Part shown: positions 5,531 through 15,436 of the stretch, in pieces
How positions within the stretch are numbered: the first letter of the stretch is position 1
Layout: the number at the start of each line of letters is the position of its first letter
Source: Gammaproteobacteria bacterium
GTDB lineage: Bacteria > Pseudomonadota > Gammaproteobacteria > CBDBBL01
Direction of reading: 5' to 3'
NCBI GenBank assembly: GCA_965203125.1
Contig: CBDBBL010000018.1
Span: forward strand, 162,885-226,884
DNA: 64,000 nucleotides
The notes under the pieces: model-generated
Told to the model about the DNA's origin: nothing
What the model saw: the letters and a program-made list of their open reading frames with translations, nothing else
Database searches by the model: none
Program-made: the position numbers and the translations under genes

Positions 5531-6605
5531 AGACCTCGAGAATTGAGTTGAAATAAACCAAAACACGAGGTCATTATGCAAATCAAAGGACTGCACAAGT
5601 CGATTTATAAACTATATGGATATGGACGTAAACAAGAAGTTTTAATTGAATACCGAAAAAAATATCAAACGATAGTCAGTCAGTGGGAGCGTCTGAAAAA
5701 AGCAGGCACCAATGAGAAAGAAATCCCTTCATTTGTAGGTTGCTCAAGAGCAACGTATTATCGATCTCGAAAAATATTGATCGATTTAGAACGCGGTAAA
5801 CTACCACCATCAAAAGCTAGGATTAGGCGAAACAAACCGAAATGGGGTGAGGCAGAAAAACAGTTAGTGCTTGGTGTTCGCAGAGAAAACAGCAGCTATG
5901 GCAAGTTTAAAATAACCCATATATTGAAACGAGATCATCAGTTACAGATGAGTGAAAGCACAGTAGGCAGGATATTGAAACACTTACTAAGAAAAGGCGT
6001 GATCACCAAATCTCTATCAGCACAGCGGGCAAAAAAGAAACGTAATTTCACTAAAAGTTATGCTAAGCCTTGGCAGTTCAAAAAATATGAACAAATGAAG
6101 TTAGGTGAGCATGTTCAAGTAGATCATATGACAGTACGCCACAATGGAGTAACGGTGAAGCATTTTCAGGCATGGGAGCGTAAAAGCAAATACATTGGAG
6201 CGCAGATTTACACCAATGCTAGCAGTAAGTCAGCTAGAAAGTTTTTACTCGAGCTGATAGAGCAAGCTCCGTTCGAGATCTTGTCGATACAGGTTGATGG
6301 AGGATCAGAGTTCATGGCTGAATTTGAGGATGCTTGTCGACAGCTGAATATACCGTTGTATGTTTTACCGCCAGCTAGTCCAAAGAAAAATGGAGGTGTT
6401 GAAAGAGGTAACCGAATTTTTAGAGAAGAGTTTTATGCCAAGCCTTCACTTGCAGATTCACTGGGAGCAATTCGTAATGATCTTAAAGATGCTGTGGCTA
6501 AATATAATGATTACAGACCGCATTTTTCTCTTGCAGGCTTAACTCCTTTGGCTTACATTGGGAAACATAATTCTCGAGGTGCTTGTTTGTCTCAAAACAC
6601 CTGAA
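5531..6605 (+). mobile_element. IS element (IS481-like, single DDE transposase ORF) inserted between xseA and guaB
   Basis: Imperfect terminal inverted repeats GACCTCGAGAATT (about 5532-5544) and AATTCTCGAGGTG (about 6568-6580) bracket a single transposase ORF; exact ends uncertain. Confidence 0.55.
5576..6604 (+). CDS. DDE transposase (integrase-core/rve domain; IS481-like)
   Basis: 342 aa; N-terminal HTH-like region, catalytic core with [23 protein letters not shown] and [15 protein letters not shown] (D,D,E integrase-core pattern). Confidence 0.8.
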
Positions 6606-6680
6606 CCTATACACCATACAAATAACACTCAACATTCGCCACAACTTCTTGTACAATGGCAGAGAAAAGTAGACATTATC

Positions 6681-8165
6681 ATGAAAATATCTCACGATGC
6701 ACTCACTTTCGACGACTTACTGCTCATCCCCCGTTATTCTGAAGTCCTTCCTAATGAAGTTGACCTAACTACCCAGTTAACACGTCATATCAGCTTGAAA
6801 ATGCCATTACTATCCGCCGCGATGGATACCGTAACAGAAGCAAAACTTGCCATTACTTTGGCACAAGAAGGCGGCATCGGTATCTTACATAAAAACATGT
6901 CTACTCAGGCACAAGCTGAACAAGTCCGTCAAGTCAAAAAATTTGAGAGCGGCGTGATTCAAGACCCCGTTACCATCTCACCTGAAACAACAGTCGGCAA
7001 ATTAAAAGAACTAACACAGTCTCACGGCTTTTCTGGTATGCCCGTCATGGACTCAACATCAGGCAAAAATCAAGTAGTCGGCATAGTCACTAATCGTGAT
7101 ATTCGCTTTGAGAAGGACATGAGTAAAAAGGTCGCCGATGTCATGACATCTAAAGATCAATTAGTGACTGTTGCTGAAGGAACAGATAAACATACCATCA
7201 TGACGCTGATGCAAGAGCATAGAATTGAAAAAATACTTGTCGTCGACCAGCAGTTTTCTTTACGCGGAATGGTCACAGTCAAAGATATTCTTAAAGCAAA
7301 AGAAAAACCAAATGCAAGCAAAGATGAGCAAGGTCAGTTGCGTGTCGGCGCAGCAGTCGGGGTCGGTGCAGAAACTGAAGAACGCATCGAGCACTTAATT
7401 GTTGCAGGAGTTGATGTCATTATTATCGATACAGCACATGGGCACTCTAAAAAGGTGCTCGAACGTATTCAAGCAACACGCAAGGCTTATCCAAACCTTG
7501 CCATCATTGGTGGCAATATTGCCACTGCCGATGCTGCACAAGCATTAATTGATGCGGGGGTGGATGGGTTAAAAGTCGGCATGGGACCTGGCTCAATTTG
7601 TACAACCAGAATCATTGCAGGTATTGGTGTACCACAGGCGAGCGCCGTTGACCAAGTTGCACGTATTGCTAATCAATATAATATACCCATCATTGCCGAC
7701 GGTGGCATTCGATTCTCTGGGGATATTGGCAAAGCAATTGCTGCAGGTGCATCTAGCGTTATGATTGGTAGCTTGTTAGCAGGAACAGAAGAATCACCTG
7801 GTGAAGTTATTTATTACCAAGGGCGCGCCTATAAAAGTTATCGAGGGATGGGCTCTGTTGGCGCAATGAGCGGCGACCATAGCTCTGCAGACCGTTATTT
7901 CCAAGAAAAACCCAATCATATGAATCATCAACAAAAACTCGTTCCTGAAGGCATTGAAGGTCGAGTACCCTACAAGGGCAGTGCAGTCACGGTACTTCAC
8001 CAATTAATGGGGGGATTACGCTCGACAATGGGCTATACAGGTGCAAAAGATATCAACACGCTACGCACACAAGTTGAGTTTGTTCGCATCTCTAGTGCAA
8101 GCATGAAAGAAAGCCATGTACACGATGTGATGATTACAAAAGAAGCACCAAACTACAGCATTTAG
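6681..8165 (+). CDS. guaB: IMP dehydrogenase GuaB
   Basis: Start taken at internal Met ([22 protein letters not shown]), 494 aa; CBS pair and catalytic loop (GIGVPQ...GPGSICTTR) present. Upstream part of the listed ORF lies inside the IS and is not GuaB. Confidence 0.92.
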
Positions 8166-11688: not shown

Positions 11689-11979
11689 TAACAGGCTTAT
11701 TTAGGTATGATATACACACAATTGTTATCTTTTTTATCGTTTGAGCTAACACGATATTTCTTCCAAGTTAAACTTTCCGACATCATAGCGAAAAACAGTT
11801 CAACTTGAAATCAATTCCAACAACAAAAGATGACATTTTTTAACTAATGAACAAGCAGTCATTAATCATAAAAGCCCCACGGCAATCGCACCGAGATATT
11901 TCGCACAACGACTTGCTTTAGTGATTAAAACCCTGTAAAAATGGTTCTGTCGCAAACAAGAGGCAATGTGCTAAACTGA

Positions 11980-12244
11980 GTGAAAAATCACTGGAGCGAA
12001 CAGATGGCAATCGACTTTGCAGGAAGACATTATCCAAAAGATATCGTGTTATGTGCAGTGCGTTGGTATTTAGCGTACTCGTTGAGCTACAGAGATGTAG
12101 AAGAACTGCTGTCAGAGCGAGGAGCCGCTCCAGATCACTCAACAATTCAGAGATGGGTAGTGAAGTACGCACCACAATTAGAAGCTGAGTTTCGAAAACG
12201 TAAAAAGCAAGTAGGCAACAGCTGGCGAATGGATGAGACGTACA
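11980..12244 (+). CDS. IS6-family transposase, exon 1 (N-terminal part)
   Basis: Translation FAGRHYPKDIVLCAVRWYLAYSLSYRDVEELLSERGAAPDHSTIQRWVVKYAPQLE...WRMDETY is collinear with the IS26 Tnp N-terminus (GRHFQRDIILWAVRWY...HMDETY); ends at the intron 5' splice site. Confidence 0.8.
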
Positions 12245-14524
12245 GTGCGCCCAGCCTTTGGAGGCATCAAGGAAGAAGCTGCCGAAGCTTGAGCATGTTT
12301 GGAATGCGCTCATCAAACTAAGGAGTAAAAAAAAAATGAGTGCCTGAATCCTGTCATGAGGATTGTGTGAGCCGAAGCGGCGGTGATCTGCTGTGCATTA
12401 GCAGAGTGACGGAGCCCGTGGGAAACGGGATGTGAGGCGAGGTCGTTACGCCAAGATGCATCTCTAGGCTGAGTATTGGAAGGTTGAGGAACACGAACCG
12501 ATTAAATCGTATCTATGGGCTGAAACGTCGCCATCACCTACACGATCTAATAGGTGATATTCAAGCTGGTGAAAGAATAGATGTATGATTCTTTCACCCA
12601 AATTCTAGCATAAATGTAGGATGCTGGAAGGGTATCATGAAGAGAGCATGACTAGCTCATGATGCTTGATACAACTTGCAGAGCGCAAGGTTAAAGAATG
12701 CGATCGGCAACCTAACCAGTACACTTGAGTCCAGCATGTGGAATGGGGAAGGTTTATTGAAATGATAAGGGAATGCGACCCCAATGATCAATAAGCTGGC
12801 GGAGCTTTCGTAGTAGTCTGAGACAGGGAGAACCTGTTACATGGCGAAGGAAGGCAGTTTAAGTGATTTGTTTGGCAGATTACCTGCCTATAAAGAGGTG
12901 AAGACCTATGATAATCAGAGAAATGCAAAACAAATTAGCAAAGTGGTCTTTAGAAAATCGCGAGCGAAAGTTTGATCGATTACTAAGGATGATTGCAAAC
13001 CGGTCATGGTTGCAAGAGGCGGCTCGTGTCACGCTAGCATCATCAGGTGCTAGAACAGCAGGAGTTGATGGAGTAAACAAGCAGGTAATGGAGGGAAACC
13101 TCCTAAAAGAGTTGGCATTGATAAGTTCTGAGCTACTAGCAGGGAGCTATCAACCACAACCAGCCAAGCGAGTTTATATTCCCAAAGCTAACGGCAAACA
13201 AAGACCGCTAGGAATTCCGACATTACGAGACCGAATTGTGCAACGTGCTATGTTGATGGTTATGGACCCTATCTGGGAAAGCGACTTTCATCGCTTGTCT
13301 TATGGGTTTCGACCAGAACGCAGTGTTCATCATGCAGTCCGCACACTGAAAATTCAATTACAAGACGGTGGTTACACCTCAGGACGCTGGGTGATCGAAG
13401 GTGATCTGTCCAGCTATTTTGATACGGTGCATCACCGATTGTTAATGAAGTGTGTAAAAAAACGGATACGTGATCAACGCTTTCTGACATTGCTGTGGCG
13501 ATTCATCAAAGCAGGACATATCGACAAGGGTCTATTTAACGCAGCTAGTCGAGGGGTTCCCCAAGGCGGAGTAATCTCGCCATTATTATCCAATTTAATG
13601 CTCAATGAATTTGATCAATGGTTGGATAAAAGGAACTTGTCTAAAAAAGCACGCAAAGACCGTTGGTATTGGAATGATAGTATTAAACGGCAGCGCAACA
13701 TTGCTATCCAAAAAGGACGACAGTGGAAGCCTGCCGTTGCTTACTGTCGCTATGCAGATGATTTTGTTATAGTTGTAAAAGGAAGTAAAGCACATGCTGA
13801 GGATATTCGTAAAATGTGTCAGCAGTTTTTAGAAAGAGATCTCAAACTAACATTAAATATGGATAAAACTCATATTACACATGTTAATGATGGGTTCACT
13901 TTTCTAGGTCACCGCCTGATACGTAAGCGAGGATCCGAAGGAAGAATGCGGACTGTAACAACGATTCCTCAATGTAAGTCTAAAGCATTTGCGTTAAGCG
14001 TGAGCAAAGAGCTTACAAGTAATCATAGCGTGAATAAAACTGCCATGATAGAGAAGCTCAATCGCAAAATTATTGGTTGGGCAAATTTTTACCAACACAC
14101 TGATTTCACAGCTATTGTGTACCAGAAAATTGACAGAATAATATTCTGGAAACTAGCGCACTGGCTAGCTCGGAAATACCGAACTAGTGTCAAGTCGCTA
14201 ATGCGCAAATGGGTGAATCGACCGGAAGAAAGCAAAGCAAAAACTTGGCAGCTGTCTGGTCACAGTGAAAATGGAAAATATATCAAAGTGTCGTTACGAC
14301 GATTGGTAACCAGTCGTAAAATGACATTTCGCTGGCGTAATCCTGAAAGCAACCCGTATTTGATACGGGAAGAAGTCAGGAGCACAGTTACATCACGCTA
14401 TCATGAAATTGCAATGGCGATGCGTCACACTTAAATGGAGAGCCGTATGCGCTGAGAGGTGCACGTACGGTTCGGTGAGGAGAGATAGGGAAATAGTTCG
14501 ACTACGCCCTATCTCTTACTCTAC
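12245..14524 (+). mobile_element. Group II intron (ribozyme plus intron-encoded protein)
   Basis: 5' end GTGCG at 12245; near the 3' end a domain V-like hairpin GAGCCGTATGCG...CGTACGGTTCGG (about 14446-14476) followed by a domain VI-like hairpin; RT/maturase ORF inside. Joining 12244 to 14525 restores an uninterrupted IS26-like reading frame (MDETY-IKARGKWTYLYRAVD). Confidence 0.8.
12908..14434 (+). CDS. Group II intron reverse transcriptase/maturase (intron-encoded protein)
   Basis: 508 aa; RT domains with RPLGIPTLRDRIVQ, FDTVHH, YCRYADDFVIVV (YADD active site), and maturase X domain (IIGWANFYQH). No obvious HNH endonuclease motif at the C-terminus. Confidence 0.9.
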   Translation: MIIREMQNKLAKWSLENRERKFDRLLRMIANRSWLQEAARVTLASSGARTAGVDGVNKQVMEGNLLKELALISSELLAGSYQPQPAKRVYIPKANGKQRPLGIPTLRDRIVQRAMLMVMDPIWESDFHRLSYGFRPERSVHHAVRTLKIQLQDGGYTSGRWVIEGDLSSYFDTVHHRLLMKCVKKRIRDQRFLTLLWRFIKAGHIDKGLFNAASRGVPQGGVISPLLSNLMLNEFDQWLDKRNLSKKARKDRWYWNDSIKRQRNIAIQKGRQWKPAVAYCRYADDFVIVVKGSKAHAEDIRKMCQQFLERDLKLTLNMDKTHITHVNDGFTFLGHRLIRKRGSEGRMRTVTTIPQCKSKAFALSVSKELTSNHSVNKTAMIEKLNRKIIGWANFYQHTDFTAIVYQKIDRIIFWKLAHWLARKYRTSVKSLMRKWVNRPEESKAKTWQLSGHSENGKYIKVSLRRLVTSRKMTFRWRNPESNPYLIREEVRSTVTSRYHEIAMAMRHT

Positions 14525-14976
14525 TCAAGGCACGTGGAAAATGGACTTATTTGTATCGAGCTGTTGATAAGTCAGGTAAGACAATTGACTTTATGCTCAG
14601 TGAAAAACGAGATAAAGAAGCAGTACTAAAGTTCTTCAAAAAAGCGATCAATTCACATGGAAGTCCTGAGACAGTGAACATTGATAAGAGTGGTTCCAAC
14701 ACCTCAGCACTGAATCATATCAATGCACTATATTGGGTTGCTGGCTTATGGATGCTAGTGATTAATATTAGGCAGAATAAGTATCTCAATATTATTGTAG
14801 AGCAAGACCACCGAGGAATTAAGCGAGTTTTGAAAACTTCCACTTGGTTCAAATCATTTTCAAATGCTGCCGATACTTTGGCAGGAATTGAACTTCACCG
14901 TATGCTTAAAAAAGGCCAGATGAAAAACTCTGATGGAATGACTGTTTGGGAGCAATTTTATTCGCTTGCAGCATAA
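14525..14976 (+). CDS. IS6-family transposase, exon 2 (C-terminal DDE part)
   Basis: Translation ...GKWTYLYRAVDKSGKTIDFMLSEKRDKEAVLKFF...VNIDKSG...IEQDHRGIKRV...GIELHRMLKKGQ matches the IS26 Tnp C-terminal catalytic region (YLYRAVD...INTDKAP...ECDHGKLKR...GIEVMRALRKGQ). Confidence 0.8.
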
Positions 14977-15436
14977 TTGCGTCCTCGATATAGTTACCTC
15001 TTCACCTCAGTGTCTTTTTGCGACAGAACCTAATATAGCCTGTGGTGCATTAGTGGATCTATACATATTATCTAGTGTGTCCCTAAAATCGATAAACATC
15101 AACTTCCTTTCTGACCAAGATATTGAAAATGAAATTGCGAAGCTTAAAACATTACAGGACAAAAGTGTAGTGTTCAGTCAGTTACTGAGCATGTGCGGAG
15201 TAATTTTATATAAATTAAAAGAACTTAGTGATGATACAGCTCTGGGTGTAGTAGAAAAAAATATTCACTTCCTTCTATCTGTGATTGAAGGGCTAAATCA
15301 TATCGTTAGCACCTCTCAACGTGATGATATAGTTATGAAATGCAGACAACGTGTTTTATTGTTATCCAATGCTGGTATGAAATTGAAAAGTTACTACCTA
15401 CCAACTTCTAGCGTTGGCTTTGCACCATTAGCATAG
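14966..15436 (+). CDS. Hypothetical protein (5' end overlaps the IS6 right end; possibly truncated by the insertion)
   Basis: 156-aa ORF, no recognisable motif; its first 22 codons lie inside the IS. Confidence 0.2.
   Translation: MQHNCVLDIVTSSPQCLFATEPNIACGALVDLYILSSVSLKSININFLSDQDIENEIAKLKTLQDKSVVFSQLLSMCGVILYKLKELSDDTALGVVEKNIHFLLSVIEGLNHIVSTSQRDDIVMKCRQRVLLLSNAGMKLKSYYLPTSSVGFAPLA

Follow-up and report, generated by a model that had tools for sequence, protein, structure and literature searches.

Within a stretch of 64,000 nucleotides of gammaproteobacterial DNA (the window, by which we mean the whole stretch analysed, with positions counted from its first letter) we find an insertion sequence (IS) of the IS6 family whose transposase gene is split by a group II intron. 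We consider it very likely, with a probability of roughly 85%, that a full-length and apparently active group II intron of bacterial class A retrohomed in sense orientation into this transposase gene. The observations that carry this reading are the anatomy of the split gene, the homology of its parts, covariation in the RNA, identical copies of the intron in other genes, and a target-site duplication (TSD) around the whole composite at a place where the window retains the empty site. The nesting of an intron in an IS is itself already known, and it is the less unusual because the lineage had been found in transposase genes of the IS3 family (PMC3522654); the host IS family is new.

An IS6-family transposase gene split by a group II intron

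The complete IS spans 11943-15030 on the forward strand, measuring 3088 bp with the intron and 808 bp without it, and is bounded by 14-bp inverted repeats (IRs; both GGTTCTGTCGCAAA, at 11943-11956 on the forward and 15017-15030 on the reverse strand) that match each other at 14/14 positions. A preliminary description of this DNA had given the span as 11943-15029; its left end agrees with ours, and its right end falls one base short of the right IR, which closes at 15030. Exon 1 of the transposase gene (12004-12244, forward strand; ATG at 12004, alternative GTG at 11980) ends with the codons for W-R-M-D-E-T-Y and the first base of an Ile codon, reading ...ATG GAT GAG ACG TAC A, and exon 2 (14525-14976, forward strand) starts with TCAAGGCACGTGG and runs through …IKARGKWTYLYRAVD… to the stop codon, encoding two residues of the DDE triad, its Glu and its second Asp. 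The loss of the frame after MDETY at 12244 and its resumption at 14525, both pointed out in the preliminary description, prove exact on direct reading, and joining 12244 to 14525 yields the collinear IS6 transposase that it proposed: a stop-free frame of 230 codons from the ATG at 12004 to the stop at 14974-14976, with a predicted ligated-exon junction of ...GAGACGTACA^TCAAGGCACG (…ACGTACA^TCAAGG…; here and below a caret marks the insertion point). The product of 230 amino acids (aa) matches the IS6 family transposase model NF033587 from end to end (237 bits, cut-off 125) and the Pfam family DDE_Tnp_IS240 (PF13610, 128 bits), and these matches hold only after conceptual splicing.

The element has a single DDE transposase of the IS6/IS240 type, IRs that begin with GG, and, once the intron is subtracted, the length of about 0.8 kb (808 bp) expected of the family. 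It further resembles IS26 and other IS6 elements in the 14-bp length of its IRs, whose sequence resembles the GGNNCTGTNGCAAA type of terminal IR found in IS26, and in the 8-bp TSD seen at another copy (below). It differs from them in being split by a 2.3-kb retroelement and in the sequence of its transposase, which is at most 70-76% identical to the uninterrupted relatives found; the nearest named IS6 relatives belong to Legionella and Yersinia. An intron-less copy of the same IS, which the preliminary description had raised as a check on the nested arrangement, is absent from the 64-kb window, and among 5.8 billion protein clusters, the organism's own proteins included, the best uninterrupted IS6 transposase reaches only that 70-76%. 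Scanning 11800-15200 for promoters and terminators returned no more sites than shuffled sequences did. An open reading frame (ORF) of 156 aa (14966-15436, forward strand) begins within the right end of the IS, reads outward into the flank and has no family match; it may be spurious, or what is left of a gene that the IS cut short.

The intron occupies 12245-14524 (2280 nt), in sense orientation to the transposase gene. It begins with GTGCGCC at 12245 and ends with ...CTTACTCTAC (…CTAC) at 14524, and the conserved group II ends (5' GUGYG and 3' AY) are present here and in all members of the family that we describe below. At its 3' end the Rfam model RF00029 for domains V and VI (DV and DVI) matches over its full length at 14438-14524 (63.7 bits, gathering score 40, E = 3.4e-10) and stops exactly at the proposed 3' splice site. 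DV (14440-14473, forward strand) is 34 nt long with an AGC triad and a 2-nt bulge, in both the Rfam match and an RNAalifold consensus, and in DVI (14476-14522, forward strand) the branch-point A bulges out at 14518, seventh when counted from the 3' splice site. The consensus of the 3' 100 nt shows compensatory pairs in these domains and conservation of the bulged A.

The Rfam group II model covers DV and DVI only, and the fold of domains I to IV was judged by covariation within the family itself, by aligning the segment preceding the ORF in 18 diverse members and deriving an RNAalifold consensus. This consensus contains 175 pairs, 95 of them with compensatory double changes, and comprises DI, DII, DIII and DIVa. 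DI is large and multi-branched (12250-12747, closed by the helix 12250-12253 / 12744-12747) with many compensatory pairs, and is followed by DII (12748-12800), DIII (12804-12855) and a DIVa hairpin (GAGGUGAAGACCU, 12895-12908), all on the forward strand. The hairpin covers both the start codon of the intron-encoded protein (IEP) and its Shine-Dalgarno sequence, is invariant in 18/18 aligned members, and corresponds in position to the site of IEP binding and translational autoregulation in known group II introns. The insert of 2280 nt beginning with GTGCG and the DV/VI-like hairpins at its end, as first described, are therefore borne out, and the folding of the 5' region into domains I-IV, which had been left as a check, comes out in their favour.

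The IEP gene (12908-14434, forward strand) is intact and encodes 508 aa, the length usual in the family, arranged as a reverse transcriptase (RT) with a YADD motif, a maturase domain (X) and a C-terminal extension of about 70 aa. The assignment made from the YADD motif in the preliminary description is borne out by matches to RVT_1 (residues 91-337, E = 6.5e-38), GIIM (residues 367-435, E = 3.7e-12) and TIGR04416 group_II_RT_mat (357 bits, cut-off 300). No endonuclease (En) domain was detected in the IEP, and the C-terminal 70 aa or so are free of Cys residues and of an HNH motif. The start codon is ATG in the window (GACCTATG; 12905-12910) and TTG in 16/18 aligned members (GACCTTTG); the other aligned member with ATG is locus L010 (loci are designated here by L and a number), and the E. 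coli annotation begins at TTG.

With this anatomy it is highly improbable that the intron is a decaying relic unable to splice or move and the IS a dead pseudogene. Many bacterial group II intron copies are indeed fragments (PMC3522654), and one such fragment, copy B, lies in the window itself; however, the IEP ORF is intact at its family length of 508 aa, all catalytic motifs are kept, the transposase exons are stop-free and both IRs are perfect. Furthermore, the intron recurs in 100% and 99.87% identical copies at three further loci in different host genes, so that four different host genes are occupied in all.

Mobility of the composite element

Searching for exact protein matches placed the identical IEP on three metagenome contigs. 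One of these sister contigs (L001) matches the window at about 98% identity to either side of an insert, which consists of the whole 3088-bp IS with its intron, differing by one substitution and standing where the window sequence is uninterrupted. In this contig an 8-bp TSD, the length characteristic of IS6 elements, flanks both sides of the composite, and the same 8 bp (AAAAAAAC) occur singly in the window as the empty target site (29068-29075, reverse strand). Because of this duplication and this empty site we conclude that the intron-bearing IS has transposed as one unit since the strains of the window and of the sister contig diverged. The insert lies 183 bp upstream of a gene of the VipB/EvpB type; in the window this gene, for a contractile sheath protein of type VI secretion-like systems (27651-28892, reverse strand; PF05943 and PF18945), adjoins the target site.

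For the composite to transpose, a functional IS6 transposase must have been available. All IS6 genes visible in the window carry the intron and no uninterrupted copy above 76% identity was found among the protein clusters searched, so that the most economical source of the enzyme would be spliced mRNA of an intron-bearing gene; supply in trans from an unseen IS6 copy is possible. The suggestion in the preliminary description that expression of the transposase depends on splicing may thus draw indirect support from the transposition of the composite. After transcription from the IS, the intron would take up its fold, associate with its own RT/maturase and be spliced through branching at A14518, joining 12244 to 14525 into an mRNA for the 230-aa transposase. 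The excised lariat-protein particle could then invade new sites, and since the IEP has no endonuclease domain we propose that priming would come from DNA ends at replication forks. Mobility would thus operate on two levels, the intron spreading as fresh, identical copies to genes of both IS3 and IS6 type, and the IS carrying the intron along in a transposition marked by an 8-bp duplication.

A different account would have the intron mobile yet splicing too poorly, thereby silencing the IS, with the insertion in the sister contig catalysed in trans by another IS6 copy. Such an account has a precedent in RmInt1, which resides in ISRm2011-2 of Sinorhizobium meliloti, splices at about 0.07% and has been proposed to restrain its IS (PMC3035460); moreover, splicing in our case is read from the sequence, and with only 64 kb visible of a genome whose contig measures 237 kb or more, further IS6 copies may exist. 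However, there is no uninterrupted copy in the window and none above 76% identity among the protein clusters searched, the only other copy seen (copy B) is both intron-bearing and a pseudogene, and all features of the ribozyme and IEP are intact and under visible constraint. We therefore regard silencing with supply in trans as rather unlikely, and prefer splicing of the composite's own transcript as the source of its transposase.

RmInt1 is like the window intron in lacking an endonuclease, in its sense orientation and in its position inside an IS transposase gene (PMC3035460, PMC4238363), and it poses the same issue of whether splicing permits, or the intron restrains, transposition of the IS. 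It differs in belonging to class D, in its IIB-like RNA, in its host IS, and in that its splicing has been measured and is very low, whereas the system described here combines splicing predicted from sequence with natural evidence that an intron-bearing IS has transposed. This natural transposition of an IS with a 2.3-kb intron bears directly on the question raised by RmInt1, namely whether such introns repress their host IS.

Target site, host genes and exon recognition

To compare insertion sites, we mapped the intron ends in the fetched loci by their similarity to the ends of the window intron. In the loci with a junction inside the contig, all of the approximately 37 mapped 5' junctions read GAY NNN ACN T(A/T)Y N^T, preceded by TGG NNN NNN, which encodes the motif W-x-x-D-x-T-Y or -F followed by I, V or L. 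Insertion is always after the first base of the I, V or L codon and the +1 base is always T, as in the E. coli junction ...GAT TTT ACT TAC G^TC. Conceptually spliced hosts from different organisms match the IS3 family transposase model NF033516 above its cut-off in 10/10 cases tested. From what is established for DDE transposases, the Asp of D-x-T-Y is the first residue of the catalytic triad. The IS6 target, in exon terms ATGGATGAGACGTACA^TCAAGG, lies in a protein that aligns with IS3 proteins across the D-x-T-Y stretch, with the next Asp (YLxxxxD) just downstream in exon 2, and because of this alignment its insertion point is homologous to the usual IS3 site of the lineage.

The same intron sequence is found in both kinds of host. 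On the sister metagenome contigs L003 and L002 its hosts are IS3 genes: in L003 an intron 100% identical over 2280 nt lies in an IS3 orfB at ...GTA ACT GAC ATT ACC TAC A^TT, and in L002 a 99.87% identical intron lies in a different IS3 orfB at ...GAC ACT ACC TAC A^TC, the host motif of the two being W-V-T-D-I/T-T-Y^I. We further scanned metagenomes of the Joint Genome Institute with the degenerate junction pattern GAYGARACNTAYN^GTGYGCC, whose matches were mostly due to chance. Of more than 120 metagenome matches to the junction pattern GAYGARACNTAYNGTGYGCC, about 110 were chance matches with no IS6 or RT signal, and only those in which an IS6 exon ends at the junction were kept. Eight loci (L096, L116, L148, L154, L157, L159, L191 and L198) have an IS6 exon 1 that ends exactly at the class A junction. 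Four of them (L116, L157, L191 and L198) also show a class A-like IEP at 62-66% identity, and IS6 exon 2 is seen as well in L116 (...DETY^IKVKGKWKYLYRAID) and L198 (...DETY^IKIKGKWHYLYRAID). Since the nearest relatives of these introns in domain I are different IS3-hosted introns (L096 being closest to L074, L116 to L071 and L148 to L078), class A introns have colonised the IS6 site several times independently.

Other searches for such sites were negative within their scope. The window contains no unoccupied homing site of the form TGG-N6-GAY-NNN-ACN-TWY-NT, the three junction matches on viral contigs were all due to chance, and a protein search with the ORF that reads through from exon 1 into the intron returned no other such ORF, the DNA junction pattern being the more sensitive probe. 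In the open-access literature we found no report of a group II intron in an IS6-family element.

Several individual loci depart from the common pattern. L157 and L191 have a class A intron with an IS6 exon on its 5' side (…HMDETY) and an IS3-type flank on its 3' side (…GFLYLVAIMDW), the 3' flank being the same in the two and the IS6 exons differing, which suggests recombination between intron copies of different IS families. In L071 (Novosphingobium sp. EMRT-2 plasmid pABRDHK22) the intron stands at ...ACG GAC TTC TCG TAC A^, a site that mimics GAY-NNN-NCN-TAY-N within a frame unlike a transposase, and this insertion may represent ectopic retrotransposition. In L117, a TARA scaffold, IS6 exon 1 (...RMDETY) is followed by about 22 nt resembling the intron 5' end (GTGCGCCCATCC) and IS6 sequence picks up again from about residue 136; the resemblance may be due to chance, or an intron may have been deleted imprecisely and left a scar.

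The window itself contains a second, diverged and cut-off IS6 copy with an intron (copy B, 30205-30870, reverse strand), overlooked in the preliminary description and comprising a left IR (30857-30870), exon 1 with a TGG-to-TGA stop, an exon/intron junction at 30568/30569 identical to that of the complete element (copy A), and the first 364 nt of the intron (aligned to positions 1-367 of that in copy A), after which it breaks off. Copies A and B are 87.4% identical in the exon part and 97.0% identical in the intron part (Fisher p = 2e-6). The simplest reading of this difference is that two already diverged IS6 isoforms would each have received the intron. It is also conceivable, if improbable, that copy B did not acquire its intron independently, and that an ancestral IS with its intron was duplicated and the intron parts were then homogenised by gene conversion or recombination. 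The two copies do share an exact junction, and multicopy introns are substrates for recombination, as the chimeras of IS6 5' and IS3 3' flanks in L157 and L191 illustrate; but the divergence of 12.6% in the exon against 3.0% in the intron (p = 2e-6) and the IS6 invasions by different class A sublineages elsewhere make repeated homing the simpler explanation. Abutting the break-off of copy B at 30205 there is a near-perfect palindrome (30029-30176) with 73-nt arms that are 81% complementary and 2 nt apart, and the same structure is present in the sister contig L001; it may be a small hairpin or an element like a miniature inverted-repeat transposable element (MITE), or a scar of the deletion in copy B.

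We looked in the intron for the exon-binding sites (EBS) that would pair with intron-binding sites (IBS) in the exon, a check suggested in the preliminary description. In 40 members, intron bases 281-285 pair with exon positions -9 to -13; in the window these are ACGUC at 12525-12529, in the loop (UGAA-ACGUC) of a 3-bp hairpin at 12518-12532, and GATGA at 12232-12236, all on the forward strand. Four pair types occur at this position: AUGUC/GAYAU (17 perfect cases), ACGUC/GAYGU and AGGUC/GACCU (both perfect), and UCGUC or UCAUC with GAYGA in five IS6-hosted introns, all of them paired. Since four pair types occur, and since IS3 and IS6 hosts differ by a compensatory change at two positions (AU to UC opposite AU to GA), this covariation identifies 12525-12529 and exon -13 to -9 as EBS2 and IBS2. 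The covariation shows how the lineage retunes to a new host. The EBS2 of the window intron (ACGUC) makes 4/5 pairs with the IS6 site GAUGA, 4/5 with the site in L003 and 3/5 with that in L002, and the intron looks like a generalist that is still untuned to IS6.

For IBS1 (CGTACA, exon -6 to -1, 12239-12244, forward strand) the same check gave two complementary loops and did not settle on one. They lie on the forward strand in adjacent hairpins, both supported by covariation, and share the form A-N-G-U-A-K-G: the EBS1 candidate H1 (UGUAUG, 12582-12587, in hairpin 12571-12595, with a delta-like A at 12581) and a second EBS1-like loop, H2 (UGUAGG, 12615-12620, in hairpin 12602-12630, with an A at 12614). 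H1 forms five Watson-Crick pairs and one G.U pair with the IS6 IBS1 (CGUACA), while H2 is perfectly complementary to the IS3 IBS1 of L002 and L003 (CCUACA) and mismatches the IS6 site at one base. Testing exon and intron for covariation one column at a time gave no information; comparing the loops in register did. In exon-shuffling permutations, which ignore phylogeny, the pairing is better than expected for 26 intron/exon pairs (H1 p = 0.009, H2 p = 0.002, better of the two p = 0.0002) and, on 34 pairs, for H2 (p = 0.005) and the better of the two (p = 0.004), with H1 at p = 0.09. When the register is anchored on the invariant core, the first base of H2 covaries with exon position -1 (22/31 paired, p = 0.0014) and that of H1 does not do so significantly, whereas exon position -5 pairs more often with H1. 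H1 is the matching loop in the Halomonas clade and in E. coli, where it does covary with exon position -1, and H2 is the matching loop in L010, L031, L035 and L116.

Two other roles for these loops were examined. H1 was rejected as the positional EBS2 of IIA-type introns, showing no covariation with exon -7 to -13, unlike intron bases 281-285. We also considered pairing of an EBS1-like loop with an internal CCUACA of a further hairpin (H0) or with the CUAC at the 3' end of the intron; these are invariant, and half of the motif lies in a helix.

Taken as a mechanism, the lineage would recognise DNA or RNA encoding GAY-NNN-ACN-TAY-N^T, the motif of the first catalytic Asp, through pairing of EBS2 (12525-12529) with exon -13 to -9, of an EBS1 loop (12582-12587 and/or 12615-12620) with exon -6 to -1, and of the delta-like A with the invariant +1 T. 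IS3 transposases (W-x-x-D-[I/V/F/L]-T-Y) would be the usual hosts, and the IS6 gene, because it shares the D-x-T-Y-I motif, would be a near-cognate site. A bolder proposal, which we make tentatively and think doubtful, is that class A introns are specialists for D-x-T-Y-encoding DNA that cross from IS3 to IS6 partly by means of two EBS1-like loops, each preceded by a delta A, that give one RNA two specificities (in the window, H1 for IS6 and H2 for IS3). If true, a ribozyme-guided retroelement would here widen its target range by a novel means, the dual exon-binding site. The two loops might also serve the design of targetrons.

Lineage, known systems and neighbouring features

The IEP has thousands of homologues; among the best 120, identity is 70-78% and length 503-508 aa. 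Scanning one genome per species gave 64 IEP loci at 59-79% identity across several phyla, none closer than 79%, in hosts that include Halomonas, Nitrosomonas, Methylobacter, Endozoicomonas, Desulfarculaceae, Rhodothermales and Acetobacter, among others. Plasmid-borne relatives at 66-70% occur in Burkholderia, Novosphingobium, Brucella, Bradyrhizobium, Klebsiella, Enterobacter and E. coli. Some genomes carry many copies, with at least 10 loci in one metagenome-assembled genome (MAG) of Rhodothermales and at least four in one of Desulfarculaceae, and most contigs among the listed homologues are about 2.3 kb long, reflecting assemblies that break at the intron. To solved group II RTs such as LtrA (ML) and GsI-IIC (class C), the IEP scores only about 195 bits, compared with 1160 bits to itself.

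Identity of the IEP to those of plasmid introns of E. coli and Klebsiella is 65.7%. At the DNA level, 81% of the intron length aligns at 66% identity with an intron of complete E. coli genomes; annotated ltrA, that intron separates the halves of IS3-family transposase genes, including ISEc31 and ISEc15. All copies of E.c.I4 are reported from specific positions in the IS3-like transposases of IS629, IS911, ISEc16 and ISEc31 (PMC3522654), and E.c.I4 and S.f.I1 are listed under class A, which has only three almost identical members and lacks an endonuclease (PMC3552965); the class has been described as rare (PMC7306698) and its RNA as a IIA/B hybrid (PMC7923331). The window IEP likewise has no En domain, and the delta-like A directly 5' of both EBS1-like loops, which pairs with the invariant +1 T, is IIA-like. 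The natural home of class A members is an IS3-like transposase gene, which the IS6-family host of the window intron is not; this residence is a habit of the known members rather than a defining trait, and an IS6 host leaves membership possible. We file the window intron as a putative new member of the E.c.I4-like class A lineage. In contrast to the published set of two to three nearly identical introns (PMC3552965, PMC7306698), the E.c.I4-like lineage traced here, and with it probably class A as a whole, is large and widespread across Proteobacteria and beyond.

Several points weigh against our interpretation of an active class A intron that retrohomed into the IS6 gene. The EBS2 of the window intron has one mismatch to the IS6 site, whereas those of other IS6-hosted introns pair perfectly, and the assignment of EBS1 is ambiguous between H1 and H2, the presence of two adjacent EBS1-like loops being itself unexplained. 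The class A assignment builds on published descriptions and on likeness to a single annotated intron in E. coli, and that relative is equated with E.c.I4 from the names of its host ISs. Splicing in vivo, which the intact ribozyme and IEP predict, has in RmInt1 a precedent of only about 0.07%. Finally, the window copy of the IS has no TSD (GTAAAAAT and TAATATAG at its flanks), and its own history therefore involved rearrangement or recombination, or a cointegrate-type event, rather than simple insertion. IS6 elements that have gone through cointegrate formation or recombination commonly have no TSD.

Examples from E. coli of group II introns inside IS transposase genes go back to the 1990s. E.c.I4 and S.f.I1 of E. 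coli and Shigella (in IS629, IS911, ISEc16 and ISEc31) have an IEP like that of the window, with RT and X domains, no endonuclease and about 502-508 aa; they share DV/DVI and the DIVa hairpin and insert after the first base of the codon following D-x-T-Y, with T at +1. They differ in that their hosts belong to IS3 whereas the window host belongs to IS6 (D-E-T-Y-I), and the window intron is distant enough from them to count as a different intron. It also differs from them as an apparent cross-family generalist, residing in IS3 genes of the same population as well. It provides a clear natural example of one intron sequence in two unrelated-looking IS families at a homologous codon of the catalytic motif.

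A looser parallel is offered by IStrons, in which a group I intron is combined with an element of the IS200/IS605 type. They too join a self-splicing RNA to a DNA transposon, one of the two partners softening the effect of the other or transporting it (PMC4227781); but the IStron forms one chimera, whose ribozyme renders IS insertion harmless to host genes, whereas the window composite consists of two nested autonomous elements in which the intron interrupts the transposase gene itself.

The window also contains other mobile elements. At 32574-33442 there is an N-terminally truncated transposase of the IS256/Mutator type (ORF 32607-33398, reverse strand; PF00872, profile positions 140-377 of 379) that is 97% identical to a piece of L002 and is another repeated IS of the population. 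An ORF of 342 aa at 5576-6604 (forward strand), just upstream of and overlapping the guaB ORF, matches rve_3 and weakly HTH_32, and its 3' part (6159-6613) is 96.7% identical to L002 positions 7404-7858; it lacks a strict D-x-T-Y homing site and is probably another mobile element of the transposase or integrase type.

The stretch comes from a bacterium with a GC content of 42% and carries guaBA, prfA-hemA and a full-length transfer-messenger RNA gene (ssrA, 36958-37331, forward strand; RF00023, 173 bits, E = 6.9e-69). The organism has no close relative among sequenced ones: nine of its housekeeping-type proteins, guaA and prfA products among them, each stand alone in their 90%-identity cluster among about 15 billion proteins.

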